Translations under genes and position numbers: made by a program
In this document: positions 13,031 to 57,302 of the stretch, piece after piece
How the letters are laid out: every line of letters begins with the position of its first letter
Numbering within the stretch: the stretch's first letter is position 1
The notes under the pieces: model-generated
Told to the model about the DNA's origin: nothing
The model's input: only the letters and a program-made list of their open reading frames with translations
Databases searched by the model: none
DNA from: Alphaproteobacteria bacterium
Lineage (GTDB): Bacteria; Pseudomonadota; Alphaproteobacteria; JAXMDU01
Length of the DNA: 64,000 nt
Direction: 5' to 3'
Assembly: GCA_046348645.1 (NCBI GenBank)
Contig: JAXMDU010000004.1
Location: 32,645-96,644, forward strand

Positions 13031-14230
13031 ATGAGCGGGCCCCTTTCCGGTATCCGGGTTATCGATACGTGTTCCGTGTTCTATGGCCCGTTTGCAGCCC
13101 AGATCCTGGGCGATCTGGGCGCCGATGTGATCAAGGTCGAACCCCTGACCGGCGACACCTCGCGCCGGCTGGGGCGCGCCCATCACGACGACATGTCGGC
13201 CCATTTCCTGAATTTCAACCGCAACAAGCGGGCCGTGGCCCTGGACCTGACCCAGGCCGAGGGACGCGCGGTGCTGGCCAGGCTGGTCGAGAAAGCCGAC
13301 GTCTTCATGCTCAATCTCCGGCGCAAGCCGGCCGCGAAGCTTGGCATCGGCTATGCCGATATCGCCCGGGTCAACCCCAGGATCGTTTACTGTGCCTGCA
13401 TCGGCTATGGCCATCGGGGTCGCTACCGGGACCGCCCGGCCTATGACGATCTGATCCAGGGGGTGACCGGCATCGCCGCCCAGCTGGGTCGCCATCTGGG
13501 GACCGACCCGCGCTACGTTCCGACCCCGATTGCCGACAAGACCTCGGCGGTCTATGCGGCGCTTGCGGTTTCCAGCGCGCTGGTGCATCGCGCCAAGACG
13601 GGCGAGGGCCAGGAAATCGAAGTCCCGATGTTCGAGACCCTGACCGCCTATACCATGATCGATTACATCTATGGCCTGACCTTTGTGCCGCCAATCGGCG
13701 GGGCCGGCTACGAGCGCACCATGTCGCCCTACCGGCGGCCCTACAAGACCAAGGATGGCCATATCTGCGCGCTTTGCTACACCGACCGCCACTGGCAGCG
13801 ATTCTTCGTTGGCGTCGAGCGGCCCGATCTGGCCGCCGATTCACGCTTCAAGACGCTCGATCAGCGCACCGCCCATATCGACGAGCTGTATTCGACCTTC
13901 GAAAAAATCCTGGTCGCCCGCACCACCGCTGAATGGTTCGACTTCTTCGAAAAGGCGGACATCCCGGTGGCGCCGCTGCTGCGTGGCGAGGACCTGTTCG
14001 ACGATCCGCATGTCAAGGATGTCGGCCTCTTCAGCCAGGTCGATCACCCGACCGAGGGCCGTGTCTGGCAGATCAACGTGCCGCTCGATTTCGCCAAAAC
14101 CCCGGCCGGCGTCCGGCGGCAGGCGCCGAACTTCGCCGAGCACAGCGTCGAGGTGCTGCGCGAACACGGCTTCGGCGAGGCCGAAATCAACCGCCTGATC
14201 GAGGCGGGCGTGGTGGCGGCAAGGCGCTGA
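13031..14230 (+). CDS. CoA-transferase family III (CaiB/BaiF-type)
   Basis: MSGPLSGIRVIDTCSVFYGPFAAQILGDLGADVIKVE N-terminus; 399 aa. Confidence 0.85.
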   Translation: MSGPLSGIRVIDTCSVFYGPFAAQILGDLGADVIKVEPLTGDTSRRLGRAHHDDMSAHFLNFNRNKRAVALDLTQAEGRAVLARLVEKADVFMLNLRRKPAAKLGIGYADIARVNPRIVYCACIGYGHRGRYRDRPAYDDLIQGVTGIAAQLGRHLGTDPRYVPTPIADKTSAVYAALAVSSALVHRAKTGEGQEIEVPMFETLTAYTMIDYIYGLTFVPPIGGAGYERTMSPYRRPYKTKDGHICALCYTDRHWQRFFVGVERPDLAADSRFKTLDQRTAHIDELYSTFEKILVARTTAEWFDFFEKADIPVAPLLRGEDLFDDPHVKDVGLFSQVDHPTEGRVWQINVPLDFAKTPAGVRRQAPNFAEHSVEVLREHGFGEAEINRLIEAGVVAARR

Positions 14231-14333
14231 CGACCCCGCTGATCAGACGGCTTGATCCCAGAAACGCTTTGATCCCAAAACCGGCAGGGAGCGGCATCAG
14301 GCCGCCCCCTGCCTGTCGGTCCGTTGCGGCCGG

Positions 14334-15122
14334 CTACTTGCGGAAACGGCGGAAATTGGGCTTCCGCTTCTGCATGAAGGCGGACGCGCCTTCGGTCATT
14401 TCTTCACCGCCGGCCAGGCGCAACAGCACCTGCTTGGCGTGCTCCATGGCCGGCGCAAGGCTGTCCCACCAGACATTCGAGCTGATCTTGGAAAGCTCGA
14501 TATAGGCCGGGCTCTTGTCGAGGATTTCCTCAGCCCAGGCTTCGACCTCGTCAAACAGCTTCTTGTGCGGGACCACCTTGTTGATCCAGCCCATGTCGAG
14601 GGCTTCCTGGGCGGTATAGAGCCGGCAGAGATAGACGACCTCGCGCGCCTTTTTCTCGCCCACCGTCAGGGAGAAGAGATTGGTGGCGCCATAGACCGGC
14701 GACGAGCCGATGCGCGGGCCGGTCTGGCCGAACTTCGCGTGCTCGGACGCGATGGCAAGATCGGAGCAGATGACAAGCTCGTTGCCGCCGCCGACTGCGA
14801 AGCCGTTCACCGCCGCGATGATCGGCTGCGGGATGTGACGCATGAGGTTAAGCGTATAGGACGAGCCGCCGAACAGCTTGCGTCCCATGCTGACGTCGAA
14901 ATCGGCGAGATCGGCAAGATAGCCGCCCGCCGAAAAGGCCTTGTCGCCGGCGCCGGTCAGGACCACGACGCCGATCTTGCCATCATTGCCGGCATCGGCA
15001 AGCGCGTCGCCCAGCTCGGTGATCGTTTCGCCGTCGAACGCGTTATGTCGTTCCGGATGATTGATGGTGATCCGGGCGATGTGCCCCTTCTTCTTGTAGA
15101 TGATGTGCTTGAATTTCTGCAT
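14334..15122 (-). CDS. enoyl-CoA hydratase/isomerase (crotonase) family
   Basis: ARITINHPERHNAF...VLTGAGDKAFSAGG...AAVNGFAVGGGNEL; start at internal ATG (MQKFKHII) after AAGGAG. Confidence 0.8.
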   Translation of the reverse strand: MQKFKHIIYKKKGHIARITINHPERHNAFDGETITELGDALADAGNDGKIGVVVLTGAGDKAFSAGGYLADLADFDVSMGRKLFGGSSYTLNLMRHIPQPIIAAVNGFAVGGGNELVICSDLAIASEHAKFGQTGPRIGSSPVYGATNLFSLTVGEKKAREVVYLCRLYTAQEALDMGWINKVVPHKKLFDEVEAWAEEILDKSPAYIELSKISSNVWWDSLAPAMEHAKQVLLRLAGGEEMTEGASAFMQKRKPNFRRFRK

Positions 15123-15176
15123 CACAGACGCTCCTTGTTGTTCTTGCGATCTCGGTCGCCCAGGTTGCCGCACACC

Positions 15177-16313
15177 CTAAAGTGTACGGGAAATGATCTC
15201 TTTCATGATCTCGGATGTACCGCCGGCGATGCGGCCCTGGCGCACATCGACGAAGGCGCGGCCGATCGGATATTCCCACATGAAGCCGGCGCCGCCGTGA
15301 AGCTGCAGGCAATCGTCGATCTTGTCGTTCGCCGTGTCTGCGCTCCAGTACTTGATCATCGCGGCATCGACCGAATCGAGCTTGCCCTGCATCAGCAGCT
15401 CGGTGCAGCGGTCAAGCATGATCCGTGCCAGGATGCAATGCGTCTTGACCTCGGCCAGCTTGAACCGGGTGTTCTGGAACTCGAAGATCGGCCGACCAAA
15501 GGCCGTGCGGCCCTTGGTGAACTCGACCGTCCATTCGAGCGCCGCCTCCATCAGCGCGACGTTGCGGGCCGCCGCGATGATGCGTTCGCGGGTCAACTGT
15601 TCCATCAGATAGGTGAAGCCGCGCCCTTCCTCGCCCAGCAGGTTCGAGACCGGAACACGCACGTCCTGGAAGAACAGCTCCGAGGTGTCCTGGGCCTTGA
15701 AGCCGATCTTCTCGAGATTGCGGCCGCGGACGAACCCCTTGCGGGTCGCTTCGACGACAACCAGGCTGACGCCCTTGCCTTTCGCGGTGGGGTCGGTCTT
15801 GCAGGCGACGATGATGATGTCGGCGCTCTGGCCGTTCGAAATGTAGATCTTCTGCCCGTTGACGACATAGTGGTCGCCATCGCGGATCGCGCGGGTGGTG
15901 ATGTTCTGAAGATCGCTGCCGACCGAAGGCTCGGTCATCGCGATGGCGCCGATATATTCGCCGCTTGCCATCTTTGGCAGCCACGCCTTCTTCTGGGCTT
16001 CGCTTCCATAATGCAGCAGATAGGGCGCGACGATATCTGAATGAAGCGCAAAGCCCGGACCGGTGGCACCGACCCGCGTCAGTTCCTCGATCACGATCAT
16101 GCTGTGGGCGACATCGCCCCCGAGCCCGCCATATTCTTCCGGGATCGAGCAAAGCAGCATGCCGGTCGCGCCGGCCTTGAGCCACACGTCGCGGGGAACA
16201 ACGCCCGACTTTTCCCATTTCGCGTGATGCGGGACCACCTCTTGCTCGACGAAGCGGCGGACGGTCTGGCGAAAGATCTCGTGTTCCTCGCTGAACAACG
16301 TGCGCGGAATCAT
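15177..16313 (-). CDS. acyl-CoA dehydrogenase (second subfamily)
   Basis: AMTEPSVGSDLQNITTRA...GQKIYISNG...FGRPIFEFQNTRFKLAE...GGAGFMWEYPIGRAF. Confidence 0.85.
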   Translation of the reverse strand: MIPRTLFSEEHEIFRQTVRRFVEQEVVPHHAKWEKSGVVPRDVWLKAGATGMLLCSIPEEYGGLGGDVAHSMIVIEELTRVGATGPGFALHSDIVAPYLLHYGSEAQKKAWLPKMASGEYIGAIAMTEPSVGSDLQNITTRAIRDGDHYVVNGQKIYISNGQSADIIIVACKTDPTAKGKGVSLVVVEATRKGFVRGRNLEKIGFKAQDTSELFFQDVRVPVSNLLGEEGRGFTYLMEQLTRERIIAAARNVALMEAALEWTVEFTKGRTAFGRPIFEFQNTRFKLAEVKTHCILARIMLDRCTELLMQGKLDSVDAAMIKYWSADTANDKIDDCLQLHGGAGFMWEYPIGRAFVDVRQGRIAGGTSEIMKEIISRTL

Positions 16314-16410: not shown

Positions 16411-17190
16411 TCAGTCGCCAAGCGCCCCGGCGACAAAGCCGTCGACCAGGCGGGCAAAGGCGGTGGGGGCCTGATAGGGAATGAAATGCGCTGCCTTTTC
16501 CACCACCACGAACGAGGCGTTGGGCAGGGCCTCGAACACCGCCCGGCACGGGCCCGGCCCCCAGCCCCGATCCAAGCGGCCCGCCAGCACCAGGGTCGGG
16601 CAGCCGATGTCTTGCACCAGGGTTGAAATATCGTGATCGATCGACCCCAGCAGAATATTGGCATAGCTCTGGGGATCGTTCTCGGCCACGGCGGCCAGGA
16701 AGGCCCGGTAGCGATCGTCAAGCGGCAGGCCATTGAACGCGACCTCGACCGCCGCCGGCAGAACCGGACCGAGACTCGCCGCCTTGAGGACAAGGCCGGC
16801 CCGCTTGCGGATGACGTCCCCCACCCTGCCATCGGCGACCCGAAGCCCACAGGTGGACAGCACCAGGGCCGGCACGCGGCCCGGATGACGGGCGGCAAAC
16901 GTCGCGGCGACCATGGTCCCCATGGCGCAGCCGACCGGGACGACCTCGGTCACCCCGGCCGCGTCCAGAACCGCTTCGAGATCGGCCAGCTCGCGCTCGA
17001 GCGTCTGCGGCTCGGTCGCCCGGGGCGAACGCCCGGCGCCGCGGCGATCATAGACAACGATGCGGTAGCGTTCGCCCAGCAGCGCCACGGCATCGCGCCA
17101 CATGCGGCCATCGCTGCCAAGACCGTGCAGAAGGACCAGGGTCCGCCCCCGTGCATTGCCGAGAATCTGATAATGAAGATCGGTCGTCAT
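16411..17190 (-). CDS. alpha/beta-fold hydrolase
   Basis: LVLLHGLGSDGRMW, nucleophile elbow GCAMG; start at internal ATG (MTTDLHYQ). Confidence 0.7.
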   Translation of the reverse strand: MTTDLHYQILGNARGRTLVLLHGLGSDGRMWRDAVALLGERYRIVVYDRRGAGRSPRATEPQTLERELADLEAVLDAAGVTEVVPVGCAMGTMVAATFAARHPGRVPALVLSTCGLRVADGRVGDVIRKRAGLVLKAASLGPVLPAAVEVAFNGLPLDDRYRAFLAAVAENDPQSYANILLGSIDHDISTLVQDIGCPTLVLAGRLDRGWGPGPCRAVFEALPNASFVVVEKAAHFIPYQAPTAFARLVDGFVAGALGD

Positions 17191-17256
17191 GGCTCGACCA
17201 GAGTGGACCATGCCAGCAGTGGAACATGAAGGACGGCCATGCTAGGAGATTCTCCC

Positions 17257-18204
17257 ATGCAAGCGAAGCCCAATGTCCTTGTGGTCGTGAAGCCGCCCGA
17301 CAATGTCGTCGCCCGGCTCGAGCGTGATTTCACCCTGCTCAAGCTGTGGGAGCTGGGCAGCGACGAAACCGCCGCGCTGCGCCGCGTGGCCGATCGGGTC
17401 CAGGTGCTGTTCACCTTCAATCGCTATCTCACACCGGACTTTCTTGATCCCTTGCCGAATCTCAAGCTGATCTGCTGCTTCGGGGCCGGCTTCGATCGAG
17501 TGCCGATGGACTATTGCCGTCAGCGCGGCATCCGGGCGACGAATGGTCCCGACACCAACGCCGGCTGCGTTGCCGACGCGGCGATGGGACTTTTGCTTGC
17601 GACCCAGCGGCGGATTGCCGCCGGCGACCGCTTCCTGCGCCGCGGCGGCTGGCTCAAGCAGCGGCTCTATGACACGACCTCGCGCTTCTACGGGCGGCGC
17701 CTGGGCCTTTTGGGTTTCGGTTACATCAATGCCGCGGTGGCCAAGCGGGCCCGGGGCTTCGATCTCGAAATCGCCTACTGTACCCGCAACCGCCGCCCTG
17801 ACGTTGCCTATCGCTGGGAGCCCGATCTTATCGCCCTGGCCAGGTGGGCCGATTACCTGGTCGCTGCCATCCCGCTTGACGCGACGACCCGACACATCAT
17901 CAATCGTCCAGTAATCGAGGCGCTGGGCCCGAAGGGCATGTTCGTCAACGTTTCGCGCGGGCCGATTGTCGATCAGCCGGAATCATCGGCGGCCCTGCAG
18001 GACGGGCGCCGAGCAGCGCGGGGCTCGACGTGTTCGACGGCGAACTCCCATGTGCCGGCCGAGCTGATGGCGCTCGACAACGTGGTGCTGACCCCGCATG
18101 TGGGCGGCATGACCCATGAAAGCTTTGCCGACGGGGCCGAACTGCTGGCCCGCAACATCACGGCTTTCTATGCCGGTCGGCCGCTGATCACGCCGCTGCT
18201 GTGA
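17257..18204 (+). CDS. D-isomer-specific 2-hydroxyacid dehydrogenase family; internal compensating frameshift pair
   Basis: GLLGFGYINAAVAKRA NAD motif and C-terminal VVLTPHVGGMT; between about 18001 and 18056 the ORF reads RRAARGSTCSTANS while the expected AGLDVFDGE is in another frame. Confidence 0.65.
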   Translation: MQAKPNVLVVVKPPDNVVARLERDFTLLKLWELGSDETAALRRVADRVQVLFTFNRYLTPDFLDPLPNLKLICCFGAGFDRVPMDYCRQRGIRATNGPDTNAGCVADAAMGLLLATQRRIAAGDRFLRRGGWLKQRLYDTTSRFYGRRLGLLGFGYINAAVAKRARGFDLEIAYCTRNRRPDVAYRWEPDLIALARWADYLVAAIPLDATTRHIINRPVIEALGPKGMFVNVSRGPIVDQPESSAALQDGRRAARGSTCSTANSHVPAELMALDNVVLTPHVGGMTHESFADGAELLARNITAFYAGRPLITPLL

Positions 18205-19113
18205 TCAGCCGTCCTTGGGGCCAAGCTCGACGCCATTGAGCTTGCCCAACGCCTTGGCCAGCGATGCGGCCAGGTCATTGCCATAGCCCATCGAATCCGC
18301 CAGCGCATAGGCCTGGTGGATCGCCTGCGCCATGAACACCGGCGCCGTGATGCTTTCCGCCATGCGCGTGTAGCACCGAATGTCCTTTTTCGCGAGGGCA
18401 AGCTGGAAGATCTGCTGGCTTGGGCCCTTGCCAGTGATCCACGGCATGATGCGATCGAAGGTTGAACTCTGGGCGCCGCCCTGGGGAATGATCTTGTGGA
18501 CCATATCGAGGTCGATGCCGGCCTTGGCCGCCACCGCCATCGTTTCACAGACCAGCGCGCCGATCCCGAGGGCAAGGAAGTTATTCACCATCTTGAACCG
18601 ATGCGCCGTCCCCACCGCGCCGATATGGAAAATCGTTTCGGTGAAGGTCGAAAGAACAGGCGTGATGCGCTTCAGCATTGCCGCGTCGGTGCCGACAAAG
18701 ATGTTGAGCGTGCCGGCCTCGGCATGGGTCGGGTTGCGCTGCAGGGGGGCATCGACATAGTGGATGCCGCGCGCCTTCAGCGCCTCGATGGTCCGGCCGA
18801 TCTCGTTTGGATCGACGGTGGTCGAATCGATGACGATCAGGCCGGGCTTCGCCCCCTCGACGATGCCGCCCGGGCCCAGGCAATGACGCTCGACCTCGAC
18901 CTGCGACGGCAGGCACAGGAAGACGATGTCGGATTGGCCGGCGATCTCGGCCGCCGATCGGCCCTCGGTCGCCCCCCGGGACACAAGATCGTCGATCGGC
19001 TTCCTGTTGCGGTGTCCCATGACCATCAGGGGATAGCCCTTCATGACGATGTTCTTCGCCATGCCGTGCCCCATCAGCCCGGCCCCCAAGAATCCAATCC
19101 GTTCCTTCGCCAT
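18205..19113 (-). CDS. NAD-binding 3-hydroxyisobutyrate dehydrogenase-like (6-phosphogluconate DH N-terminal domain family)
   Basis: Start MAKERIGFLGAGLMGHGMAKN after AAGGAAG; the longer ORF 18205-19479 N-extension looks spurious. Confidence 0.75.
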   Translation of the reverse strand: MAKERIGFLGAGLMGHGMAKNIVMKGYPLMVMGHRNRKPIDDLVSRGATEGRSAAEIAGQSDIVFLCLPSQVEVERHCLGPGGIVEGAKPGLIVIDSTTVDPNEIGRTIEALKARGIHYVDAPLQRNPTHAEAGTLNIFVGTDAAMLKRITPVLSTFTETIFHIGAVGTAHRFKMVNNFLALGIGALVCETMAVAAKAGIDLDMVHKIIPQGGAQSSTFDRIMPWITGKGPSQQIFQLALAKKDIRCYTRMAESITAPVFMAQAIHQAYALADSMGYGNDLAASLAKALGKLNGVELGPKDG

Positions 19114-19133
19114 GGTCGCTTCCTTTTGTCCTT

Positions 19134-20273
19134 TTATAGGCCTTGAACAATGCGCATGAATTCTTCGGTATCGGCGCCCAGATCGGGCGGGGCCCGGGTG
19201 ATGCCGGGACGCGTGCCGTTGAAGCTGAGCGGATTCAGAATGACCTCGAGATCGGGCCGGCCGGGGACCTTGGCCGAAACCTCGCTCGCCGCCAGTTCCG
19301 GATGGGTGCAGATTTCGCGCACGTCGTGCAGCGGCCCGGCCGGCACACCCGCCGCTTCGATCCTGGCGACCCAGTTGTCGCACGTATCGGTCTTGAACAC
19401 CGCTTCGATCAGCGGCAGCAGCAGGTGCTTGTTCTCGATCCGCAGGCCGGTATTGCAGAAGCGCGGATCGTCGGCCCATTCCAGATGGCCCAGAGCCTCG
19501 GCGAATTTGCGGAACAGCCGGTCGTTCCCGGGCGCCACCACGATCAGACGGTCCTGGGTGGGAAAGGCCTGATAGGGCACGACGATGCCCGTACCCGAGC
19601 CCCAGCGACCCGGCTCCTCGCCCGAGGTGCGGTATTGGCCGATCGGGAAATTCATCAGGTTCATCGCCACCTCGAACAGCGAGGTTTCAATGTGGCAGCC
19701 CTGGCCGGTGCGATCACGCTCGCGCAAGGCCTGCAGGACGCCGATCAGGATCCACTGCGCGGTGGCGAAATCGATCAGGGCAATGCCCACCCGCGAGGGC
19801 GGCCGGTCCGGCTCGCCGGTGATCGCCATGATCCCCGAGAAGCCTTCCATCAGAAAGTCGTAGCCGGGCTTGGTGGCGTTGGCGCCCTTCTTGCTGAAGG
19901 CGCGCACCGAAGCGCAGATCAGGCCGGGCTTCTCGCGCCGCAGATCATCGGGGTCGAGGCCAAGCTTGCCCACCGTCCCCGGCCGCAGGTTCTGGATGAA
20001 CACGTCGGCCTTTTTCAAGAGGAACGTGCGCAGCAGTTTCGATTGGGCCGGGTCCTTGAGATCCAGAACGACCGAGCGCTTGTTGCGATTGACGGCGTGG
20101 AACGGCGCCGCCGATCCATAGGGCCGGGGATTGCCCATGCGGCGTGTGCTGTCGCCACCATCCGGGTTTTCAACCTTGTAGACCGTGGCGCCAAAGTCGC
20201 CGAGCGTCTGCGCCGAAAAGGGGCCGGCAATGGCCTCGCCCATTTCGACGACCGTGATTCCCGATAGCGGCAT
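19134..20273 (-). CDS. CoA-transferase family III (CaiB/BaiF-type)
   Basis: MPLSGITVVEMGEAIAGPFSAQTLGDFGATVYKVENP; start at internal ATG by analogy with paralogs. Confidence 0.85.
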   Translation of the reverse strand: MPLSGITVVEMGEAIAGPFSAQTLGDFGATVYKVENPDGGDSTRRMGNPRPYGSAAPFHAVNRNKRSVVLDLKDPAQSKLLRTFLLKKADVFIQNLRPGTVGKLGLDPDDLRREKPGLICASVRAFSKKGANATKPGYDFLMEGFSGIMAITGEPDRPPSRVGIALIDFATAQWILIGVLQALRERDRTGQGCHIETSLFEVAMNLMNFPIGQYRTSGEEPGRWGSGTGIVVPYQAFPTQDRLIVVAPGNDRLFRKFAEALGHLEWADDPRFCNTGLRIENKHLLLPLIEAVFKTDTCDNWVARIEAAGVPAGPLHDVREICTHPELAASEVSAKVPGRPDLEVILNPLSFNGTRPGITRAPPDLGADTEEFMRIVQGL

Positions 20274-20350
20274 TCCTGCTTGTTCCCCTTTCCTCCGGAT
20301 CGTTGTCACGGGTCCGTCGCGCCGACGCTTCAGCCGTTCTCTCTGGCTCG

Positions 20351-21121
20351 TCAGGTGCGAACGCCGATCTTGCTTCGCCAGCGGCGCATGCCGGCAAGCC
20401 AGCGGTCGTAATCAGCCAGCTTGCGCCGCGCCATGTCGAGCACTTCGGGATGGGGAAGGATCAGGAACTTTTCCGCCTCGATCCCCGCCATCACCGAATC
20501 CGCCACCGCCGCGGGTTCGATTATGGCCTTGTCGGCGCCGCTCAGAAAGCTTTGATTGGCCGCCACCATCGGCGTGCGCACGGTCTGCGAGGCGATCACG
20601 GAAACCCGCACGCCCTGATCGCCATAGGCAATGGCAAGATATTCGGCAAAGGCGATGGCCGCGCGCTTGGTCACCATGTAGGCCGCCGCGTGGACCTGCG
20701 CCAAAAGGCCGGCCGCTGACGTGCTCAGGATGAAATAGCCGTCGCGCCGCGCCGCCATCAGCGGCATCACGGCCCGCGCCGCGTAAACATGCGCCATGAC
20801 ATGAAGGTTCCAGTTGAGCGTCCATTCGGCATCCGGCGCCGCCTCGGTGCCGGGCTGCAGAATGCCGACATTGGACACATAAAGGCCGATCGGTCCCGCC
20901 GCTTCGGCGCGGGCGACCAGGGCCTTCACGTCCTCTTCGCGACTGACGTCGCACGGCACGGCAATGCCCCCGATCCGCGCCGCCACCGCATCAAGATCGC
21001 TTCGGGTGCGCGCCGCCAGGAATACTTCCTTCGCCCCTTCGGCCTTGAACCGCTCGGCCAGTGCAAGCCCGATGCCCGACGTCGCACCGGTCACCACCAC
21101 CACCTTGCCTGCGATCTTCAT
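20351..21121 (-). CDS. short-chain dehydrogenase/reductase (SDR)
   Basis: GKVVVVTGATSGIGLALA Rossmann motif; YMVTK (YxxxK) active site. Confidence 0.8.
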   Translation of the reverse strand: MKIAGKVVVVTGATSGIGLALAERFKAEGAKEVFLAARTRSDLDAVAARIGGIAVPCDVSREEDVKALVARAEAAGPIGLYVSNVGILQPGTEAAPDAEWTLNWNLHVMAHVYAARAVMPLMAARRDGYFILSTSAAGLLAQVHAAAYMVTKRAAIAFAEYLAIAYGDQGVRVSVIASQTVRTPMVAANQSFLSGADKAIIEPAAVADSVMAGIEAEKFLILPHPEVLDMARRKLADYDRWLAGMRRWRSKIGVRT

Positions 21122-23445: not shown

Positions 23446-23463
23446 GGGTTCTGCTCGATCCGT

Positions 23464-50488: not shown

Positions 50489-50898
50489 TGGACAAGGCAA
50501 CGAAACATCCCGCCCCGCCGATGACCCCGGAGTCGGCGCCCTATTGGAAGGCGGCGAGCAAGGGCGAGCTGCTGATCGGCTGGTGCGAGGACTGCAAGAA
50601 GCCGCACCACGCGCCCCAGGGGGTGTGCCCGTTCTGCTGGTCGTCGAAGACCCGCGCCAAGCCGGCCAGTGGACGCGGCAAGGTGAATTCCTTCACGGTG
50701 ATCCACCAGACCGCAATGCCCGATTTTGTCGGCCTGGTGCCCTTTGTGGTTGCCTATGTCGAGCTTGAAGAGGGCGTGTCGCTGGTCAGCAACATCGTCG
50801 AGTGCGAATGGAGCAAGGTCAGGATCGACATGCCGGTAGTCGCAACCTTCGAGACGGTAGCCGAGAACGTCGGCATCCCGCTGTTCAAGCCGGCCTGA
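50488..50898 (+). CDS. DUF35 Zn-ribbon/OB-fold protein (thiolase partner)
   Basis: CEDCKKPHHAPQGVCPFC zinc ribbon followed by OB-fold-like C-terminus; usual pairing with SCP-x-type thiolases. Confidence 0.65.
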   Translation: MDKATKHPAPPMTPESAPYWKAASKGELLIGWCEDCKKPHHAPQGVCPFCWSSKTRAKPASGRGKVNSFTVIHQTAMPDFVGLVPFVVAYVELEEGVSLVSNIVECEWSKVRIDMPVVATFETVAENVGIPLFKPA

Positions 50899-50933
50899 GC
50901 GCGACGAAGCGACGAAACCGGGATGGACGAAAA

Positions 50934-50968
50934 TGGGGCGGCCGCCTGGGGCCGCCCCGCCCTTTTCG
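50934..50968. terminator. bidirectional rho-independent terminator between convergent genes
   Basis: GGGGCGGCC gcctg GGCCGCCCC followed by gcccTTTTCG on + and aTTTTCG on -. Confidence 0.6.
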
Positions 50969-52021
50969 TCAGCTTGCGCCTTTCTTGGCCTCGCTCAGAA
51001 CGAAGTCGAGCATCTGCTGGGCGGGATAGCCCTTCGGCGTCATCTCCTTCACCCATTCGTCCCAGACGGGTTGCCCCCCGACACGGGCGAATTCCTCGCG
51101 CATGGCGGGCGGGATCACCACCGTCCTAACACCCCGTTTCTTGAAGGCATCCTCGGCCTTGTCTTCTTCGGCCTGCAGGGCGTCGCTCTGGGCTTTGTGG
51201 GCCGCGGGGGTGACATCGAGAATCACCTTCTTGTACTGGGGCGGCAGCTTGTTGAAGGCATCGCGATTGAAATCGACATTCGAGATCGACACGCCGAGCG
51301 CCAGGCCCTTCGTGTACCACTTGCTGATCTCGTGAAGCTTGTAGACCTCGAAGGCGTAATAGGCGAAACCGGCGGCGTCGATCACGCCGCGCTCCAGGCT
51401 GCCATAGACCTCGGGGCTGGTGACCGAGGTGGCCACGGCGCCAAGCTTGGCCATCGCCGCGCCCTGACCGCCGATCGCGCGCACCCGCAGGCCTTTCCAG
51501 TCGGAAAGCTTTTCCGGCGCCTTGCCGGTGCCCATGAACTCGTAGGACGGAATGACATTCGACAGGCCGTAATTGACGTTCCAGACATCGAAATCCCGCT
51601 TCACGAACGCATGCCGATGGAAGATATCCGAGACGCGTGTCTGGGTTCTCAGGTCATCGAGCGGAAGGAAGGGCAGGCTCAGCACCGCAAGGCCGGGCTG
51701 CTTGCCCGGCGCGAAGGCGGGCACCACCCATCCCGCTTCATAGGCCCCGAGCTTGAGGCCGTCCAGGACTTCCTTTTCAGGGGACAGGGTCGCGCCATAG
51801 ACGACCTCGATCCTGAAATTGCCGTTCGTCTCGGCGGCGACAAGTTCCGAGAACTTGTCCATCGAGATCGAAACGGCGCGTGGCTTGCCATAGGCGGCCA
51901 GCCGCCAGTGGACCTTGGGCCCGTCGACGGCGGCCTGGGCCGCCGCCGCAGAGCCGAAAACAAGCGCCGCCCCAAGCGTGATCGCCGCGACGGTCATACC
52001 AAAACGATAATGCAAGAACAT
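50969..52021 (-). CDS. periplasmic solute-binding protein, TRAP DctP-like family (orphan)
   Basis: Start MFLHYRFGMTVAAITLGAALVFGSAAAAQA after GGAGGA; fourth SBP paralog. Confidence 0.55.
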   Translation of the reverse strand: MFLHYRFGMTVAAITLGAALVFGSAAAAQAAVDGPKVHWRLAAYGKPRAVSISMDKFSELVAAETNGNFRIEVVYGATLSPEKEVLDGLKLGAYEAGWVVPAFAPGKQPGLAVLSLPFLPLDDLRTQTRVSDIFHRHAFVKRDFDVWNVNYGLSNVIPSYEFMGTGKAPEKLSDWKGLRVRAIGGQGAAMAKLGAVATSVTSPEVYGSLERGVIDAAGFAYYAFEVYKLHEISKWYTKGLALGVSISNVDFNRDAFNKLPPQYKKVILDVTPAAHKAQSDALQAEEDKAEDAFKKRGVRTVVIPPAMREEFARVGGQPVWDEWVKEMTPKGYPAQQMLDFVLSEAKKGAS

Positions 52022-52208
52022 GGCAGATTTTCCTCCGTGCGCCTTTGATCTGATTGTTGTGATTTGCAGAGCACGTTGCCGGTTGTCCGGCAGAGCCGAT
52101 CCCGACATTGCATCCATGATTGCCCAAATGCTGGAAAAGTCGAGGGGAAATGCGCGGCCCTCAATTCATGCAATTCGGTCGCACATGCAAGATGGCGACT
52201 GGAAATGG

Positions 52209-52237
52209 AAAAAGCCCGCCACGGGTCAGCGCGGCGG
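52209..52237. repeat. 29-bp direct repeat copy 1 (AAAAAGCCCGCCACGGGTCAGCGCGGCGG), degenerate terminator
   Basis: Identical 29-mer recurs at 52989-53017; together they bracket a roughly 750-bp lower-GC segment. Confidence 0.8.
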
Positions 52238-52401
52238 CATGAACGGCCGAACATTCGCCGTCGCCTTCATCGAAGGACTGCCAAAACCGCAACCAGAAAA
52301 GGAGGAGAAGCAATCCGAAATACGAGACACCAACAAAGTCGCCTGACGCCCCCGCTCACCGCGGCACTGTCAGCCGATTACCCTCTCCGTACATGTTTTG
52401 C

Positions 52402-52869
52402 CTACCGCGCCCCTGAAAGCTGCAAGAGTCCGGACCAAGCGTTCACGATAACGACAAACATTCCGCAAAGTATGACAATAAACAAACCGGTCGTTACGGG
52501 CCAATCATACCAAAAACTGACGCGATCACGGTTTACTTCGCCGTAGACCTCTCGCGCATCTTTCTCAAATCTACCGTATAGGCGATTCAACCTCTCTCTT
52601 TTCTCTTTCATTGAATCCGTCGCGTAGACGATCACCATCAACCACATCTCCGCCACACCGATAGCGGCAATCGTAAGAATGGTCTTCCCCCAGCACGTCA
52701 GAGCGAACGGTGTCCGTGTCAAAAAGTACAGAGCGGCAAAGAGCAGCAGGGCATAATTCGTGATCTTCCAAGTCCTATCCTTCATGGCCGCGATATGTGC
52801 GATGGCGTCGCGGTGAATCATGTCGTACGCCCGCTGCGTTTCGACCTGTTCGGGTTGCTTTTCCTCCAT
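52402..52869 (-). CDS. small membrane protein of unknown function, 155 aa, three predicted TM helices, low GC
   Basis: Start MEEKQPEQ after AAGGAG; hydrophobic stretches ITNYALLLFAALYFL, ILTIAAIGVAEMWLMVIVYA, TTGLFIVILCGMFVVIVNAW; GC about 48%. Confidence 0.55.
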   Translation of the reverse strand: MEEKQPEQVETQRAYDMIHRDAIAHIAAMKDRTWKITNYALLLFAALYFLTRTPFALTCWGKTILTIAAIGVAEMWLMVIVYATDSMKEKRERLNRLYGRFEKDAREVYGEVNRDRVSFWYDWPVTTGLFIVILCGMFVVIVNAWSGLLQLSGAR

Positions 52870-52985
52870 GGCCGACTCCTTCAAATGTATCACCTTGAAT
52901 AGGCTACCGAGGATTAAGCCGTGTTTGGAAAAATTCCAGCGCGCCAATGTTGCAAAGGCGAGAGGCCCACATGCCCGAGAGCGCC

Positions 52986-53030
52986 AATAAAAAAGCCCGC
53001 CACGGGTCAGCGCGGCGGGCTTTTGTCTTT
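52986..53030 (-). terminator. rho-independent terminator for the MaoC-like gene; includes 29-bp repeat copy 2
   Basis: GCCCGCC...GGCGGGC stem; minus-strand RNA ends in UUUUUUAUU, plus strand has TTTTGTCTTTC. Confidence 0.75.
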
Positions 53031-53044
53031 CGTCTGTCAGCCGA

Positions 53045-53500
53045 TCAACGGGGCCGCTTCAGCATCATGCCGGCGCGCTTCGTGCTCATCACGCACTGGT
53101 TGTGCTGGTTGAAGCCCTCGTGCAGGCATTCGACCACGCCGCGATCGGGTCGCGTCTTGCTTTCCCGCTTGCCGATGATCGTGGTCTGGCCACGCAGCGT
53201 GTCGCCCGGGAAGACCGGGTTCGGGAACTTTGTGTCCGCAAAGTACAGATTGCCAAGCGTCGTGCCGAGGGTCAGCTCGGTCACCTGCAGGGCGGTGACG
53301 AACGACATCACATAGAGCGGGTTGATCTCGACCCGCTTGAACCGCGCATGCTGGGCCGCCCACTCTTCGTCCATGTAAGTGGGTTCGGTTTCCATGCACA
53401 TGCATGTGTACCAGATGCTGTCCGGCAGGGTCATCGTCCGCGTCACCTCGTGGCGATAGACCTTGCCGACCTCAAACTCCTCGAAATAGAGACCTGCCAT
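53045..53500 (-). CDS. MaoC-like (R)-specific enoyl-CoA hydratase / hotdog-fold dehydratase
   Basis: Start MAGLYFEEFEVGKVYRHEVTRT; 152 aa. Confidence 0.7.
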   Translation of the reverse strand: MAGLYFEEFEVGKVYRHEVTRTMTLPDSIWYTCMCMETEPTYMDEEWAAQHARFKRVEINPLYVMSFVTALQVTELTLGTTLGNLYFADTKFPNPVFPGDTLRGQTTIIGKRESKTRPDRGVVECLHEGFNQHNQCVMSTKRAGMMLKRPR

Positions 53501-53532
53501 GTGATGTCCTTCCCGTTCCCTTCCTATTTCCA

Positions 53533-53568
53533 AGCCCGTTGCCTGGCCCGTTCCTCGGCGTGTTCCCT
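53533..53568. repeat. 3 degenerate tandem 12-bp units (GCCCGTTCCTNG-like) downstream of ACAD 53584-54756
   Basis: gcccgttgcctg / gcccgttcctcg / gcgtgttccctg. Confidence 0.5.
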
Positions 53569-53583
53569 GGCGCGGGCCGGCCT

Positions 53584-54756
53584 TCAATATGATTTTGGCA
53601 GCCCGAGCACCCGTTCGGCAATATACGACAGAATGAGCGGCGGTGGAATTGGTCCGATGCGGAGCACCTGGACCTCGCGCAGATAGCGCTCGACATGGAA
53701 CTCCTTGGCATAGCCCATGCCGCCATGGGTCATGATCGCCTGCTCGCAGGCCTCGAACCCGGCCTCGGCCGCCAACCACTTGGCGGCATTGGATTCAGGG
53801 CCGCAGGGCTCGCCCTGGTCGTAGAGCGTGGCGGCCTTGAAGGCCATCAGGTTGGCGGCCTCGAGCTTGCACCAGGCCTCGGCCAGCGGGTGCTGGATGG
53901 CCTGGTTCTGGCCGATGGGGCGGCCAAAGACGACGCGATCACGCGCATACTGGGTGGCCCGCCGCAGGCCGGCCCGGCCCATGCCCACACATTCCACCGC
54001 CACCAGGATGCGTTCCGGGTTCAGGCTGTCCAGGAGGTAGTAAAAGCCTTTGCCCTCCTCGCCGATCAGGTCTTCCTTGGGGACCGGCATGCCGTCATAG
54101 AACACCTGGTTCGAATCGACCGCGTGGCGGCCCATCTTCTGGATTTCCCGCACCTCGGCGTATTTCTTGTTGAGGTCGGTATAGAAAAGGCTCAGGCCAT
54201 CGATCGGGCGCTTGGTCTTCTCGATCGGCGTGGTGCGCGCGATCAGCATCACCTTGTTGGCAACCTGGGCGGTCGAGGTCCAGATCTTCTGGCCCGAGAT
54301 GATGTAGCGCTGGCTCTTGGCATCCCACTCGGCCTTGGTGGTGAGATGGGTGGTGTCGATGCCGGCCCCGGGCTCGGTAACGCCGAAGGCCGAGCGGTCC
54401 TTCAGGGTGATGAGCCGATTGACCCAGCGGCGCTTCTGTTCGTCGGTGCCGTATTTCACGATGGCACCGGGCCCGAAGATGTTGACGTGCACCGCCGAAC
54501 AGGCGGCAAGACAGCCGCCTGATTCGGCGATCGTCTGCATCATCAGCGCCGCTTCGGTATAGCCCAGGCCCGAGCCGCCGTATTCCTCGGGCATGATGAT
54601 GCCAAGATAGCCGGCCTCCGCCATGGCCTTGGCAAAATCGTGCGGGAATTCGTGCTTGGTGTCGCGCTCGAGCCAGTAGGAATCGCTGAAGCCTTCGCAA
54701 ATCTTGGCAACGCCGTCCCGGATTGACAGTTGTTCCGGGGTAAACTTGAAATCCAT
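53584..54756 (-). CDS. acyl-CoA dehydrogenase (LGLPKSY paralog group)
   Basis: MDFKFTPEQLSIRD...FGVTEPGAGIDTT...GGMGYAKEFHVERYLRE...LGLPKSY. Confidence 0.85.
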   Translation of the reverse strand: MDFKFTPEQLSIRDGVAKICEGFSDSYWLERDTKHEFPHDFAKAMAEAGYLGIIMPEEYGGSGLGYTEAALMMQTIAESGGCLAACSAVHVNIFGPGAIVKYGTDEQKRRWVNRLITLKDRSAFGVTEPGAGIDTTHLTTKAEWDAKSQRYIISGQKIWTSTAQVANKVMLIARTTPIEKTKRPIDGLSLFYTDLNKKYAEVREIQKMGRHAVDSNQVFYDGMPVPKEDLIGEEGKGFYYLLDSLNPERILVAVECVGMGRAGLRRATQYARDRVVFGRPIGQNQAIQHPLAEAWCKLEAANLMAFKAATLYDQGEPCGPESNAAKWLAAEAGFEACEQAIMTHGGMGYAKEFHVERYLREVQVLRIGPIPPPLILSYIAERVLGLPKSY

Positions 54757-54927
54757 CGTTCTGCCTCCTCAAAGACCAGGTCGGGCAGCGCTGATCCCCG
54801 ATCGCGCTCTTGTGCCTTGTGCTGACCCAGTCTAGCGCCCCACAATGCCCGTGCAACAACTCCCGCTTGGCCGAGTTCGCCACTGGGTGAAGCAGGCGGC
54901 GGAACGGTCCGTGTTGGGAGGGATTCC

Positions 54928-56142
54928 ATGAGCGGCCCCTTGAGCGGCTATCGCATCCTGGATGCGAGCACGGTCTTTCTTGGCCCCTATGCCACGTCGC
55001 TGCTGGGCGACATGGGGGCCGACGTGGTCAGGATCGAGGCGCCGGGCGGCGACAACATGCGCCATGTCGGCCCGGCCCGCCACCCCGGCATGGCCGCCAT
55101 GTTCCTCAACATCAACCGGAACAAGCGCTCGGCCGTGCTGGACCTGGCCAGACCCGAAGGCCTGGCCGCCCTGAAACGCCTGGCCGAAACCGCCGATGTG
55201 CTGCTGCACAACCTGCGCCCGAAGCCGGCGGCGAAGCTTGGCCTCACCTATGCGGCCTTTGCCGCCGTCAATCCGCGCCTAGTCTTCTGCAACGCGGTGG
55301 GCTTCGGGCGGAACGGCCCCTATTGCGACCGGCCGGCCTATGACGACATCATCCAATCGATGTCGGGGGTCGCATCGCTGATGGCGAGGTCGCTTCAGGG
55401 CGCGCCGCGCTATGTGCCGATGGCGATGGCCGACAAGACCTCGGGCCTGATGGCGCTGTCCGCCATCCTTGCCGCGCTGATCCACCGCGACCGCACCGGC
55501 GAGGGGCAGGAAGTGGAACTGCCGATGTTCGAGACGGTGGCGTCCTTCGCGCTGATGGACCACATGAGCGGCACCGCGTTCGAGCCGCCGCTGGGACCGA
55601 CCGGCTATGGCCGCCAGCTGTCGCCCTATCGCCGCCCGTTCAAGACCCGGGACGGCCATATCTGCGTGCTGCCCTACACCGACAAGAACTGGCGCGATTT
55701 CTTCCGGGTCGCCGGCCGGCCGGATCTGGCCGCCGACCCGCGCTTCGCGACGCTGTCCTCGCGCACCGAGCACACCGAAGAGCTTTACCGGCTGCTGGAC
55801 GAGATCATGACGACCCGCGGCTCGGCCGAATGGATGCAGGCGCTGCTTGGGGCCGACATCCCGGCCGCGCCGGTGAACAGCCAGGACGACCTGCTTGACG
55901 ATCCGCATCTGAAGCAGGTCGGATTTTTCGAGATCTTCGATCATCCGAGCGAGGGCAAGCTGCGCTATGCCCGCGCGCCGATGACGTTCTCGCGCACGCC
56001 GACGGCAATCCGGCGCGGCTCGCCCCGCCTGGGCGAGCACACCGAAGAAATCCTGGCCGAAGCGGGCTATGACCGGGGCGAGATCGAGGCCCTGCTTGCG
56101 TCCGGCGCGGCCGGGCTTCCCCCTGGAACGGAGACCCCATGA
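54928..56142 (+). CDS. CoA-transferase family III (CaiB/BaiF-type)
   Basis: MSGPLSGYRILDASTVFLGPYATSLLGDMGADVVRIE; close paralog of 13031-14230. Confidence 0.85.
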   Translation: MSGPLSGYRILDASTVFLGPYATSLLGDMGADVVRIEAPGGDNMRHVGPARHPGMAAMFLNINRNKRSAVLDLARPEGLAALKRLAETADVLLHNLRPKPAAKLGLTYAAFAAVNPRLVFCNAVGFGRNGPYCDRPAYDDIIQSMSGVASLMARSLQGAPRYVPMAMADKTSGLMALSAILAALIHRDRTGEGQEVELPMFETVASFALMDHMSGTAFEPPLGPTGYGRQLSPYRRPFKTRDGHICVLPYTDKNWRDFFRVAGRPDLAADPRFATLSSRTEHTEELYRLLDEIMTTRGSAEWMQALLGADIPAAPVNSQDDLLDDPHLKQVGFFEIFDHPSEGKLRYARAPMTFSRTPTAIRRGSPRLGEHTEEILAEAGYDRGEIEALLASGAAGLPPGTETP

Positions 56143-57302
56143 CCAATCACGCCCCTCGCGGCGCCCTTTCGGGCCTGCGCGTTCTCGATTTCAGCCGCGT
56201 CATCGCCGGCCCCTTCTGCACCATGCAGCTGGCCGACATGGGCGCCGAGATCATCAAGGTCGAGCACCCGCAGACCGGCGACGACACCCGCGCCTGGAAG
56301 CCGCCCGAGGCCGGCGGCGAAAGCTATTTCTATCTGGCCCTGAACCGCACCAAGCGCGGCATCGCGCTTGACATCGCATCGGACGAAGGCCGCGCCATCG
56401 CCCGCGACATGGCGATGAAAAGCGACGTGGTGATCGAGAATTTTCGCCCCGGCGTGATGGGGCGCCTGGGCCTTGATTATGACCAGCTCAAGGCGCTGAA
56501 CCCGCGCCTGATCTATTGTTCGGTCTCGGCCTATGGGCAGGCGGGGCCGATGGCCGACCGGCCGGGTTTCGACCCGGTGCTACAGGCCGAACTCGGCTGG
56601 ATGGCGATGAACGGCGAACCCGGGGCCGAAGCGCTGCGCCTGCCGGTCGCGGTGATCGACACCTTCACGGCCCTTTATGCAGCGTCATCGATCCTGGCCG
56701 CCGTGATCGCGCGGGGGGCGACCGGCCATGGCCAGCGGATCGAGCTGTCGCTGATGGGGGTGGGGCTTGCGACCCTTGCCGCCCAGGCCCAGTACGCGCT
56801 GATTGCCGGCCAGACCATGCCGCGCACCGGCAACAATCACCCGATCGCGGTGCCGGTCGGGCTGTTCCCGACCCGGGGCGGCCCGATCTATGCCGCGCCC
56901 GCCAACGACAAGCTGTTCGAGGCGTTCTGCCGCGAGGTGCTGCGCGAGCCCGAGCTGGTCGCCGACCCGCGCTTCCGCGACAACGCGGCGCGGATGCAGA
57001 ACGCCAAGGCGATCTACGATCATGTCACAGGCTCGCTGGCGCGGCTCGATCGTGACGAGGTGCTGGCCCGCGCCCGCAAGGCCGGCCTGCCGGTGGGCGC
57101 GGTGCGCGACCTGACCGAAGCGCTGGAAGCGCCGGAAATCAAGGCGGCCGGGCTGGTGGCGACCGTCGATCACCCGACCGCCGGCGCCTTGCGCATGGTG
57201 GGATCGCCGATCGGAATGTCCGAAACGCCGGTCAGGCAACCGACCCCCCCGCCCCGCCTGGGCGAGCATACGGATCAGGTTCTGACCGACCTGCTGATCT
57301 GA
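56139..57302 (+). CDS. CoA-transferase family III (CaiB/BaiF-type)
   Basis: LSGLRVLDFSRVIAGPFCTMQLADMGAEIIKVEHP; start overlaps upstream stop (ATGA). Confidence 0.85.
   Translation: MTNHAPRGALSGLRVLDFSRVIAGPFCTMQLADMGAEIIKVEHPQTGDDTRAWKPPEAGGESYFYLALNRTKRGIALDIASDEGRAIARDMAMKSDVVIENFRPGVMGRLGLDYDQLKALNPRLIYCSVSAYGQAGPMADRPGFDPVLQAELGWMAMNGEPGAEALRLPVAVIDTFTALYAASSILAAVIARGATGHGQRIELSLMGVGLATLAAQAQYALIAGQTMPRTGNNHPIAVPVGLFPTRGGPIYAAPANDKLFEAFCREVLREPELVADPRFRDNAARMQNAKAIYDHVTGSLARLDRDEVLARARKAGLPVGAVRDLTEALEAPEIKAAGLVATVDHPTAGALRMVGSPIGMSETPVRQPTPPPRLGEHTDQVLTDLLI

Follow-up and report, generated by a model that had tools for sequence, protein, structure and literature searches.

A 64-kb alphaproteobacterial locus with diverged tandem copies of family-III CoA-transferases and TRAP binding proteins, putatively devoted to organic-acid catabolism

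Introduction

Several described gene clusters resemble the locus reported here. The itaconate and methylsuccinate cluster of Pseudomonas aeruginosa and Cupriavidus necator comprises Ict, Ich, Ccl, and a methylsuccinyl-C4-CoA dehydrogenase as well as an MmgE/PrpD isomerase (PMC12290011), and 62 CaiB/BaiF proteins have been reported in five genomes of SAR202 Chloroflexi, where they were read as a means of activating many acyl compounds without ATP (Landry et al. 2017, PMC5395668). Here, we analyze a stretch of 64,000 nucleotides (hereafter, the window) from a metagenome-assembled genome (MAG) of an Alphaproteobacteria bacterium (GenBank assembly GCA_046348645.1, contig JAXMDU010000004.1 of 253,165 bp, positions 32,645 to 96,644). 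The window carries eight genes for family-III coenzyme A (CoA)-transferases of the CaiB/BaiF type, designated CoAT1 to CoAT8, together with acyl-CoA dehydrogenases (ACADs) and DctP-type binding proteins of tripartite ATP-independent periplasmic (TRAP) transporters.

In the itaconate and methylsuccinate cluster, a CoA-transferase activates a branched C5 dicarboxylate, which is then processed by an ACAD, a MaoC-type hydratase, and a lyase; the module at 48136-57302 of the window contains all four enzyme classes plus a binding protein, and the nearest outgroup gene of CoAT2 to CoAT5 adjoins an MmgE/PrpD gene. However, the parts found here are not demonstrable orthologs. The hydratase MaoC1 obtains 100 bits with the NCBIfam Ich/RipB models, well under the equivalog cut-off of 340, the window has two CoATs instead of one and lacks MmgE/PrpD, and its lyase is of the 3-hydroxy-3-methylglutaryl (HMG)-CoA lyase-like type (HMGL-like), whereas Ccl is a CitE-type enzyme. 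The bbs operon of benzylsuccinate beta-oxidation, which encodes a CoA-transferase (BbsEF), an ACAD (BbsG), a hydratase (BbsH), a short-chain dehydrogenase/reductase (SDR; BbsCD), and a thiolase (BbsAB), offers another comparison, as the same set of enzyme classes occurs at 49328-60499, where a pair of neighboring, diverged CoATs is joined by an ACAD, an SDR, crotonases, and a thiolase of the SCPx type that has an OB-fold (oligonucleotide/oligosaccharide-binding) partner. It differs in that similarity is low, with 155 bits for the BbsB model against a cut-off of 750 and 173 bits to BbsF for CoAT8; the window has no benzylsuccinate synthase; and a related 14-kb contig (L026) lacks the thiolase pair at the corresponding locus.

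As in SAR202, many paralogous family-III CoA-transferases stand alongside short-chain dehydrogenases, and the earlier note on this DNA, made from its letters alone, had called the expansion extreme. This is an overstatement, since such proliferation had already been described in that group and modules combining a CoAT, a crotonase, and an ACAD are common in the related loci that we retrieved. Unlike the SAR202 proteins, which belong to another phylum and habitat, the paralogs of the window are arranged in tandem, in conserved operons with paralogous TRAP proteins and ACADs, so that their duplication history can be read directly. Betaproteobacterial triads, in which a CoAT, a crotonase, and an ACAD are accompanied by binding proteins of tripartite tricarboxylate transporters (Bug/TctC) and a LysR regulator, are also comparable: a locus of Variovorax boronicumulans (L028) combines a homolog 54% identical to CoAT7 with a crotonase, ACADs, a second CoAT, and periplasmic binding proteins. 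There, however, LysR and MalT/LuxR regulators and TctC proteins are present, whereas the window and its two related contigs L019 and L026 show no regulator and use DctP. The proteins described here are new, uncharacterized members of families already known, their arrangement is of a familiar type, and they do not constitute a new mechanism or system; what is specific to this locus is a clean, conserved record of module-level duplication.

Results

Expansion of an ancestral triad in a minus-strand operon

With a probability of roughly 0.6, we interpret the window as several independent catabolic modules for imported organic acids, most likely short or branched dicarboxylates, whose binding proteins, CoATs, and ACADs grew in number through tandem duplication and divergence. 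One case is a tightly packed string of minus-strand genes at 18205-27140, in which four CoATs lie together, as the earlier note had observed. It begins with ACAD4 (25914-27086; called as 25914-27140, the revised start being probable) and continues through ACAD3 (24700-25872), CoAT5 (23464-24612), CoAT4 (22306-23445), CoAT3 (21155-22291), the short-chain dehydrogenase SDR1 (20351-21121), and CoAT2 (19134-20273; called as 19134-20309, with the start trimmed, probably correctly, to fit orthologs of 379 amino acids). The last gene (18205-19119) encodes a beta-hydroxyacid dehydrogenase of the 3-hydroxyisobutyrate/tartronate-semialdehyde reductase family (HIBDH), which matches Pfam NAD_binding_2 and NAD_binding_11, stays under the NCBIfam cut-offs, and has orthologs in the related contigs L019 and L021. 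Gaps between the genes span 14-87 bp, those of CoAT5/CoAT4 and CoAT4/CoAT3 being only 14-18 bp, and no strong internal terminator was found in the operon.

The relationships among the CoATs were examined in a neighbour-joining tree (Kimura distances, 200 resamplings) of the eight window proteins, their L019 orthologs, and 20 database homologs. CoAT2 to CoAT5 and their orthologs formed one clade in 196 of 200 bootstraps, with the topology ((2,3),(4,5)), and the sister group of this clade consists of single-copy CoATs, found in Xanthobacteraceae-type MAGs and in other bacteria. Both outgroup genes whose context was examined lie in CoAT-crotonase-ACAD triads, one of them being the gene beside MmgE/PrpD, and the ACADs of these triads belong to the same LG(L/M)P(K/R)SY subfamily as ACAD3 and ACAD4. 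Because CoAT2 to CoAT5 are monophyletic and the outgroup CoATs are single copies in triads with an ACAD of the same subfamily, the tree indicates that one ancestral triad was expanded in this lineage through two rounds of CoAT tandem duplication plus an ACAD duplication.

The arrangement is conserved in other samples. The 12-kb contig L019, from the JGI metagenomes, is syntenic one to one at 70-91% amino-acid identity, in the order DctP, DctP, CoAT6, and then, divergently, ACAD4, ACAD3, CoAT5, CoAT4, CoAT3, SDR, CoAT2, and HIBDH; a second contig, L022, covers a fragment of CoAT6 through SDR1 in the same order at 92-99% identity. Each operon gene is far nearer to its positional ortholog in these contigs than to any paralog. 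In the comparison between the window and L019, the ratio of nonsynonymous to synonymous substitution rates (dN/dS) is 0.08-0.13 across the five CoATs, 0.08 for each of the two ACADs, and 0.17 in the case of the SDR, which covers all eight computable gene pairs. These patterns point to duplications that are old and to the retention of every copy, and because each copy is kept under purifying selection, its most likely role is to handle a substrate or pathway intermediate that is related to, but distinct from, those of the other copies.

Identity and active site of the CoA-transferases

All eight CoATs match PF02515 over its full length (356-427 bits, above the gathering score, model positions 1-364/366). 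Besides the four operon copies, these are CoAT1 (13031-14230, plus strand; 371 bits; MFO1188297.1), CoAT6 (27310-28530, plus strand), which is transcribed divergently from the operon, and the adjacent CoAT7 (54928-56142, plus strand) and CoAT8 (56139-57302, plus strand), which overlap by 4 bp. The paralogs are clearly diverged, as had been noted, with pairwise identities of 25-60%: CoAT1 and CoAT7 share 52%, CoAT2 to CoAT5 form a group at 43-60%, and CoAT6, a distant paralog at 25-31%, and CoAT8 each stand alone. The earlier note had proposed a check of the catalytic aspartate, and in our alignment this column (D169 of CoAT1) is invariant in the eight proteins and coincides with the Asp of the structures 4ed9 and 10uh. 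Its equivalence to Asp169 of Frc, the residue that forms the acyl-aspartyl anhydride, follows from an ungapped alignment of positions 1-204 and is thus probable.

Comparison with characterized members relied on NCBIfam equivalog scores and rankings of Protein Data Bank (PDB) scores as a proxy for phylogeny. None of the eight CoATs reaches the NCBIfam equivalog cut-off for Frc, YfdE, CaiB, succinate-glutarate CoA-transferase, succinyl-CoA:mesaconate CoA-transferase, or mesaconyl-CoA isomerase, and all lie far under every one of them. None of the paralogs belongs to a known clade with a single substrate, so the outcome that the earlier note had considered, with the copies all in one such clade, does not apply. 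The nearest proteins of known structure are the uncharacterized Brucella CaiB/BaiF protein 4ed9, 10uh (listed as a formyl-CoA transferase), the acetyl-CoA:oxalate transferase YfdE (4hl6), and the human succinate-hydroxymethylglutarate CoA-transferase SUGCT (9br6). Transferases of this SUGCT/YfdE/4ed9 type are the best structural-database relatives of all eight, over the full length and with the catalytic Asp aligned; nevertheless, with the succinate-glutarate CoA-transferase model the CoATs obtain 193-331 bits against a cut-off of 750, the highest value being that of CoAT8, which of the eight is also the nearest to characterized transferases (10uh, SUGCT). In profile searches, transferases scored 360-394 bits, compared with 174-180 bits for alpha-methylacyl-CoA racemase (MCR) and Far and approximately 150 bits for 2-methylfumaryl-CoA isomerase; when CoAT1, CoAT4, CoAT6, and CoAT8 were searched one by one, their best PDB matches reached 176-301 bits.

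The copies differ in how widely they are distributed. CoAT7 belongs to a very large and widespread orthologous group, with identities of 54-62% in SAR324, Rokubacteria, Cupriavidus, Variovorax, and Polaromonas. For CoAT4, the best match in a scan of GTDB species representatives was a protein of Roseomonas populi at 48% identity, without synteny, and a scan of JGI metagenomes returned one short relative (L009) at 83%.

Acyl-CoA dehydrogenases

All five ACADs show the three-domain architecture (PF02771/PF02770/PF00441) above gathering scores. As the earlier note had proposed, four belong to one subfamily ending in LGLPKSY, with 63-72% identity among them: ACAD1 (11704-12882, minus strand), divergent from CoAT1; the operon copies ACAD3 and ACAD4, which are about 65-67% identical; and ACAD5 (53584-54756, minus strand). 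The fifth, ACAD2 (15177-16313, minus strand), is of a different subfamily and only 28% identical to ACAD1. At the position of Glu376 of medium-chain acyl-CoA dehydrogenase (MCAD), the four subfamily members carry Pro, in the place taken in the Thermus thermophilus ACAD 1ws9 by the Glu of a "GEG" motif. In helix G, ACAD3 has Asp (IPDR) in place of the Glu of its paralogs (NPER), and this Asp is kept in three lineages (the window, L019 at 4770-5942, and L022 at 1906-3078). The helix-G position is presumably that of the catalytic base of the type found in isovaleryl-CoA dehydrogenase (IVD) and long-chain acyl-CoA dehydrogenase (LCAD).

TRAP substrate-binding proteins

The earlier note had missed four genes for DctP-type TRAP substrate-binding proteins, all of which match PF03480 and begin with signal-like sequences. 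Three of them are tandem copies, 54-63% identical, that follow CoAT6 on the plus strand: DctP1 (28746-29789), with a signal peptide; DctP2 (30027-31091), followed by a strong hairpin with an 18-bp stem and a T-tail (31152-31192); and DctP3 (31408-32454), followed by a terminator-like hairpin (32492-32517). DctP1 and DctP3 also pass the NF037995 model. DctP4 (50969-52117, minus strand) belongs to the second module described below. Because strong terminators lie behind DctP2 and DctP3, the copies may be transcribed separately and may share a transporter encoded elsewhere. The tandem DctP1 to DctP3 genes represent an expansion parallel to, and adjoining, that of the CoATs.

A second module and its insertions

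The module at 48136-57302 consists of the HMGL-like lyase (48136-49129, minus strand; a match to the HMG-CoA lyase subfamily with a broken frame), DctP4, MaoC1 (53045-53500, minus strand; an (R)-hydratase resembling mesaconyl-CoA and itaconyl-CoA hydratases, Pfam MC_hydratase), ACAD5, CoAT7, and CoAT8. The same stretch also holds the SCPx-type thiolase2 (49328-50488, plus strand) and its DUF35/ChsH2-type OB-fold partner (50488-50898, plus strand). In L026, whose CoAT7 is 82% identical, ubiT-ubiU-ubiV are followed by a convergent intact lyase (319 amino acids), DctP, MaoC (MC_hydratase), and ACAD and by a divergent CoAT pair, in which the 4-bp overlap is kept; this contig probably represents the ancestral state of the 41-60 kb region. 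Taken together, its six genes (lyase, DctP, MaoC, ACAD, and two CoATs) would provide transport, CoA transfer, dehydrogenation, hydration, and carbon-carbon cleavage and read as a complete route for a branched dicarboxylate. One candidate runs from methylsuccinate through mesaconyl-CoA and citramalyl-CoA to acetyl-CoA and pyruvate, and an alternative candidate leads from 3-methylglutarate to HMG-CoA.

Three additions distinguish the window from L026: an island of 3.9 kb and low GC that separates ubiV from the lyase, the pair of SCPx thiolase and DUF35 genes between the lyase and DctP4, and a low-GC segment of about 0.8 kb between DctP4 and MaoC1. The thiolase/DUF35 pair is a lineage-specific addition, because it is missing at the same position of L026. 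The region downstream of the CoAT pair is likewise variable between close relatives, as L026 has a hemerythrin-domain gene there (11085-11501) where the window has an opposite-strand crotonase, ECH2 (57378-58253, minus strand).

The island, of about 55% G+C and located within 43931-48386, holds a single gene (44345-47974, minus strand; 1209 amino acids) that encodes an Upf1-like helicase bearing zinc ribbons and a phospholipase D (PLD) nuclease domain; this protein matches MkoA and MkoC of the Mokosh defence system best. Direct repeats of about 290 bp lie on either side of the island (43931-44218 and 48098-48386); they are identical over their inner 177 nt and are made up of the 3' ends of ubiV and the lyase, two convergent genes. 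The island lacks an integrase, and its arrangement is the one expected after a single-crossover (Campbell-type) insertion of a circle that carried a copy of the target. The smaller segment (52118-53044), also of lower G+C, is bounded by identical 29-nt direct repeats that resemble hairpin terminators (52209-52237 and 52990-53018) and contains an open reading frame (ORF; 52402-52947, minus strand; 181 amino acids) that looks hydrophobic on visual inspection and matches nothing in Pfam or PADLOC. Another ORF, at 48218-49189 on the plus strand, was rejected as an antisense shadow of the lyase gene.

Regulators

The earlier note's statement that the window contains no transcription factor holds, as no called gene has a Pfam transcription factor or helix-turn-helix domain. 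Nor did 58 leftover ORFs of at least 55 amino acids, mostly outside called genes, contain any transcription factor domain (Pfam E<=0.01); they matched only fragments of GTP cyclohydrolase I, class II aldolase, M20 peptidase, and ApaG. The NCBI protein numbering from the first to the last CoAT (MFO1188297 to MFO1188332) allows for at most one small gene beyond our gene map. The absence of a regulator is thus real at the domain level within the window, and it is mildly unusual: if regulators make up 5-8% of genes, a run of about 50 genes without one arises a few percent of the time. No regulator was seen in L019 or L026 either. The divergent region between ACAD4 and CoAT6 (27087-27309; 223 bp) contains blocks conserved across three lineages, namely the window, L019, and L022, which are candidate promoters or an operator and include a candidate -35/-10 pair. 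An inverted-repeat search of three divergent promoter regions revealed no palindromic operators.

Discussion

Proposed pathway and its limits

Under the interpretation that we favor, a periplasmic TRAP binding protein would capture the acid, and a family-III CoA-transferase would activate it without ATP, with succinyl-CoA, acetyl-CoA, or another thioester as the CoA donor. A flavin-dependent ACAD of the LGLPKSY subfamily would then introduce a double bond, a MaoC or crotonase hydratase would add water, and a lyase or thiolase would cleave the product. Expansion would have turned one CoAT into four (CoAT2 to CoAT5), one binding protein into three (DctP1 to DctP3), and one ACAD into two. Here, we infer the order of the reactions, the dicarboxylate nature of the substrates, the operation of the CoATs as separate homodimers, and regulation that is either weak or exerted by genes outside the window.

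The earlier note had proposed a catabolic supercluster for branched or carboxylated organic acids. Catabolism of such acids fits the gene content, including the module with a TRAP protein, two CoATs, an ACAD, MaoC, and a lyase, as well as the carboxylase pair at the right end of the window, but the idea of a single supercluster pathway does not stand: the term wrongly implies one pathway, whereas several independent modules are mixed with unrelated enzymes and with ubiTUV, a defence island, and the gene of a PEP-CTERM protein.

Several observations weigh against our interpretation. Every CoAT, ACAD, crotonase, and ligase falls far under every curated NCBIfam equivalog cut-off, and no substrate is assigned. 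Three ligases that form adenosine monophosphate (AMP) occur in the same stretch, and activation without ATP is therefore not the sole route. Alicyclic or steroid-like acids would be just as compatible with the BadI-like crotonase ECH1, the SCPx thiolase, and DUF35. The large operon has no hydratase, lyase, or thiolase, so the pathway is incomplete as written, and since DctQ/DctM domains are absent from all genes of the window (Pfam), and also from L019 and L026, uptake through the binding proteins is assumed. Finally, the lyase appears frameshifted: two nucleotides are deleted near 48390 (GGCGGC to GCGC), exactly where the island repeat has its inner edge, and an indel of 1 nt lies near 48209, while a truncated copy of its last 73 codons (44007-44225) has a clean frame. 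Unless the assembly is in error at these points, the lyase is probably a pseudogene in this genome, and the SCPx-thiolase/DUF35 pair may compensate for its loss.

Alternative explanations

The main rival, which we nevertheless consider unlikely, is that adjacent CoATs are subunits of heteromeric transferases, as in BbsEF and SmtAB, such that the pairs CoAT7+8, CoAT4+5, and CoAT2+3 would reduce the eight genes to about 4-5 enzymes and the expansion would reflect specialization of subunits instead of a larger number of substrates. Diverged adjacent genes are indeed coupled, through the overlap of CoAT7 and CoAT8 here and in L026 and through the 14-18 bp that separate CoAT5, CoAT4, and CoAT3; the tree pairs (2,3) and (4,5), two adjacent CoATs beside an ACAD recur in the unrelated contigs L007 and L011, and the benzylsuccinate CoA-transferase structure (PDB 9fn0) has two different subunit chains. 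Against this, the catalytic Asp is kept in all eight proteins, so no copy looks like a degenerate partner, similarity to BbsE and BbsF is low (profile scores of 190-253 bits against 394 for the best match), SDR1 separates CoAT3 from CoAT2, and the nearest outgroup CoATs are single copies. A related and highly speculative proposal, to which we give very little weight, is that the conserved operon with five CoATs forms a combinatorial or relay system, rather than a set of parallel activators, without a dedicated local regulator. In a relay, the four duplicated CoATs could form heterodimers whose paired active sites pass CoA from a pathway product to the incoming substrate; in a combinatorial system, they could multiply the substrate range, matched to the three paralogous binding proteins. 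The suggestion in the earlier note that some copies are racemases is still harder to sustain. MCR, Far, and 2-methylfumaryl-CoA isomerase are all among the PDB matches to the CoAT profile, and several CoATs of one operon could serve successive steps of a single pathway if some were racemases (MCR/Far-like) or intramolecular CoA mutases resembling mesaconyl-CoA C1-C4 isomerase. However, every CoAT scores much better against transferases of the SUGCT, YfdE, and 4ed9 type than against MCR or Far, in line with the gap between transferases and the racemases or the isomerase reported above; no MCR or Far entry was matched by CoAT1, CoAT4, CoAT6, or CoAT8 at E<=1e-35 (1e-40 for CoAT4); and the NCBIfam mesaconyl-CoA isomerase model gives 49-89 bits against a cut-off of 725, with no match for CoAT3 at E<=1e-10. 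The catalytic pair of MCR is His126/Asp156 in the Mycobacterium tuberculosis enzyme, and at the position that would correspond to its His, presumably part of a GHD motif, all eight CoATs have Tyr or Phe, with the Asp present. Racemase or mutase activity within one pathway seems hardly credible.

We also find it quite improbable, though less so than a relay or racemases, that the stretch is a pathway for alicyclic, isoprenoid, or steroid-like acids (e.g., naphthenic acids, acyclic terpenes, or bile-acid side chains). Such a pathway would agree with ECH1, which is nearest to the ring-acting crotonases BadI and MenB, with the SCPx-type thiolase and ChsH2-type OB-fold protein typical of side-chain cleavage, with the two MaoC hydratases, the dienoyl-CoA-reductase-like SDR, and the FadD-like ligases, and with an acyl-CoA carboxylase pair and an HMG-CoA-lyase-like gene, as in the Liu/Atu pathways. 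Nonetheless, the 64 kb yielded no oxygenases, no KstD/Ksh-type genes, and no further enzymes of ring opening; all matches are under curated cut-offs; L026 lacks the thiolase/DUF35 pair at the corresponding locus, so that the pair is not core to the module; and DctP-type binding proteins usually take small carboxylates. An artefact of assembly or binning, by which a chimeric MAG contig would join paralogs of different strains, has next to no chance of explaining the expansion. The origin of the window from a MAG, its frameshifted genes, and the repeat pair of about 290 bp could raise the suspicion. On the other hand, independent Logan assemblies of four sequencing runs contain parts of the operon with identities at or near 100%, JGI contigs of other samples repeat its full gene order at 70-99% identity, and the paralogs are only 25-60% identical; because of this divergence and recurrence, a collapsed repeat, which the earlier note had already dismissed, can be set aside as well.

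Gene content of the window and neighboring features

Genes were called by third-position GC and scanned against Pfam. The counts given in the earlier note proved exact (eight CoATs, five ACADs, three crotonases, two thiolases, and three AMP-forming ligases), and a tblastn self-scan of the window revealed no extra copies or fragments of these families. The range to which it had assigned them, 13031-57302, is too narrow, as one ACAD, one thiolase, and two of the crotonases fall outside. Besides the DctP genes, the HMG-CoA-lyase-like gene, two MaoC hydratases, an acyl-CoA carboxylase beta/alpha pair, and ubiTUV had not been mentioned.

To the left of the large operon lie thiolase1 (8316-9614, plus strand; Pfam), ECH1 (14334-15173, minus strand; Pfam ECH_1), a crotonase of the MenB/BadI-like branch (NCBIfam badI, 235 bits against a cut-off of 468; MenB, 243 against 380), an alpha/beta hydrolase that is PcaD-like but under the NCBIfam cut-off (16411-17211, minus strand; Pfam), and a member of the D-2-hydroxyacid dehydrogenase family (17239-18204, plus strand). 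The three ligases follow DctP3 on the minus strand: AMP1 (32554-34566), like acetyl/propionyl-CoA synthetases, and AMP2 (35637-37178), FadD4-like, are both under cut-off, and AMP3 (37212-38909) is a further acyl-CoA ligase. Beyond the second module and ECH2 are the crotonase ECH3 (58274-59008, plus strand), SDR2 (59127-59963, plus strand), which resembles 2,4-dienoyl-CoA reductase under the cut-off, the hydratase MaoC2 (60026-60499, minus strand), and the carboxylase pair, composed of the carboxyltransferase (beta) subunit (60637-62247, plus strand) and the biotin carboxylase (alpha) subunit (62263-64000, plus strand), which continues past the end of the window. An ORF at 62728-63969 on the minus strand was rejected as an antisense shadow of the latter.

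Except for the two lower-GC patches, the G+C content of the window is 62-69%. Its first part (1-3900) contains only gene fragments split between frames, namely two pieces each of class II aldolase and GTP cyclohydrolase I, along with M20 peptidase and ApaG. In none of them is third-position GC as high as in the intact genes; the patch consists either of pseudogenes or of locally poor assembly. The sole cis-regulatory RNA found in the window is a SAM_alpha riboswitch (RF00521, 73 bits; 5184-5262, minus strand) upstream of a Cys/Met pyridoxal phosphate (PLP) enzyme gene (3923-5158, minus strand). It belongs to this methionine gene, not to the catabolic cluster, and its alphaproteobacterial type is consistent with the source class. 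A class III adenylate/guanylate cyclase of 625 amino acids (9627-11504, minus strand), with a long N-terminal region that matches no domain, is the only signalling protein in the window. A PEP-CTERM protein (40192-41106, plus strand) implies an exosortase system. The adjacent ubiT-ubiU-ubiV genes (41299-43997, plus strand), for oxygen-independent ubiquinone biosynthesis, all score above curated NCBIfam equivalog cut-offs, which suggests that the organism respires with ubiquinone at low oxygen.

Conclusions

In environmental bacteria, the family-III CoA-transferases rank with the enzyme families that are most heavily duplicated and least well understood, and almost no paralog has a known substrate. 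The locus described here offers a compact test case, in which four CoA-transferases that demonstrably stem from one ancestor, three co-duplicated binding proteins, and two co-duplicated dehydrogenases are found together under purifying selection and in a conserved order. It is a useful but unsurprising model, and substrate profiles of its binding proteins and transferases could show how such families partition substrate space.

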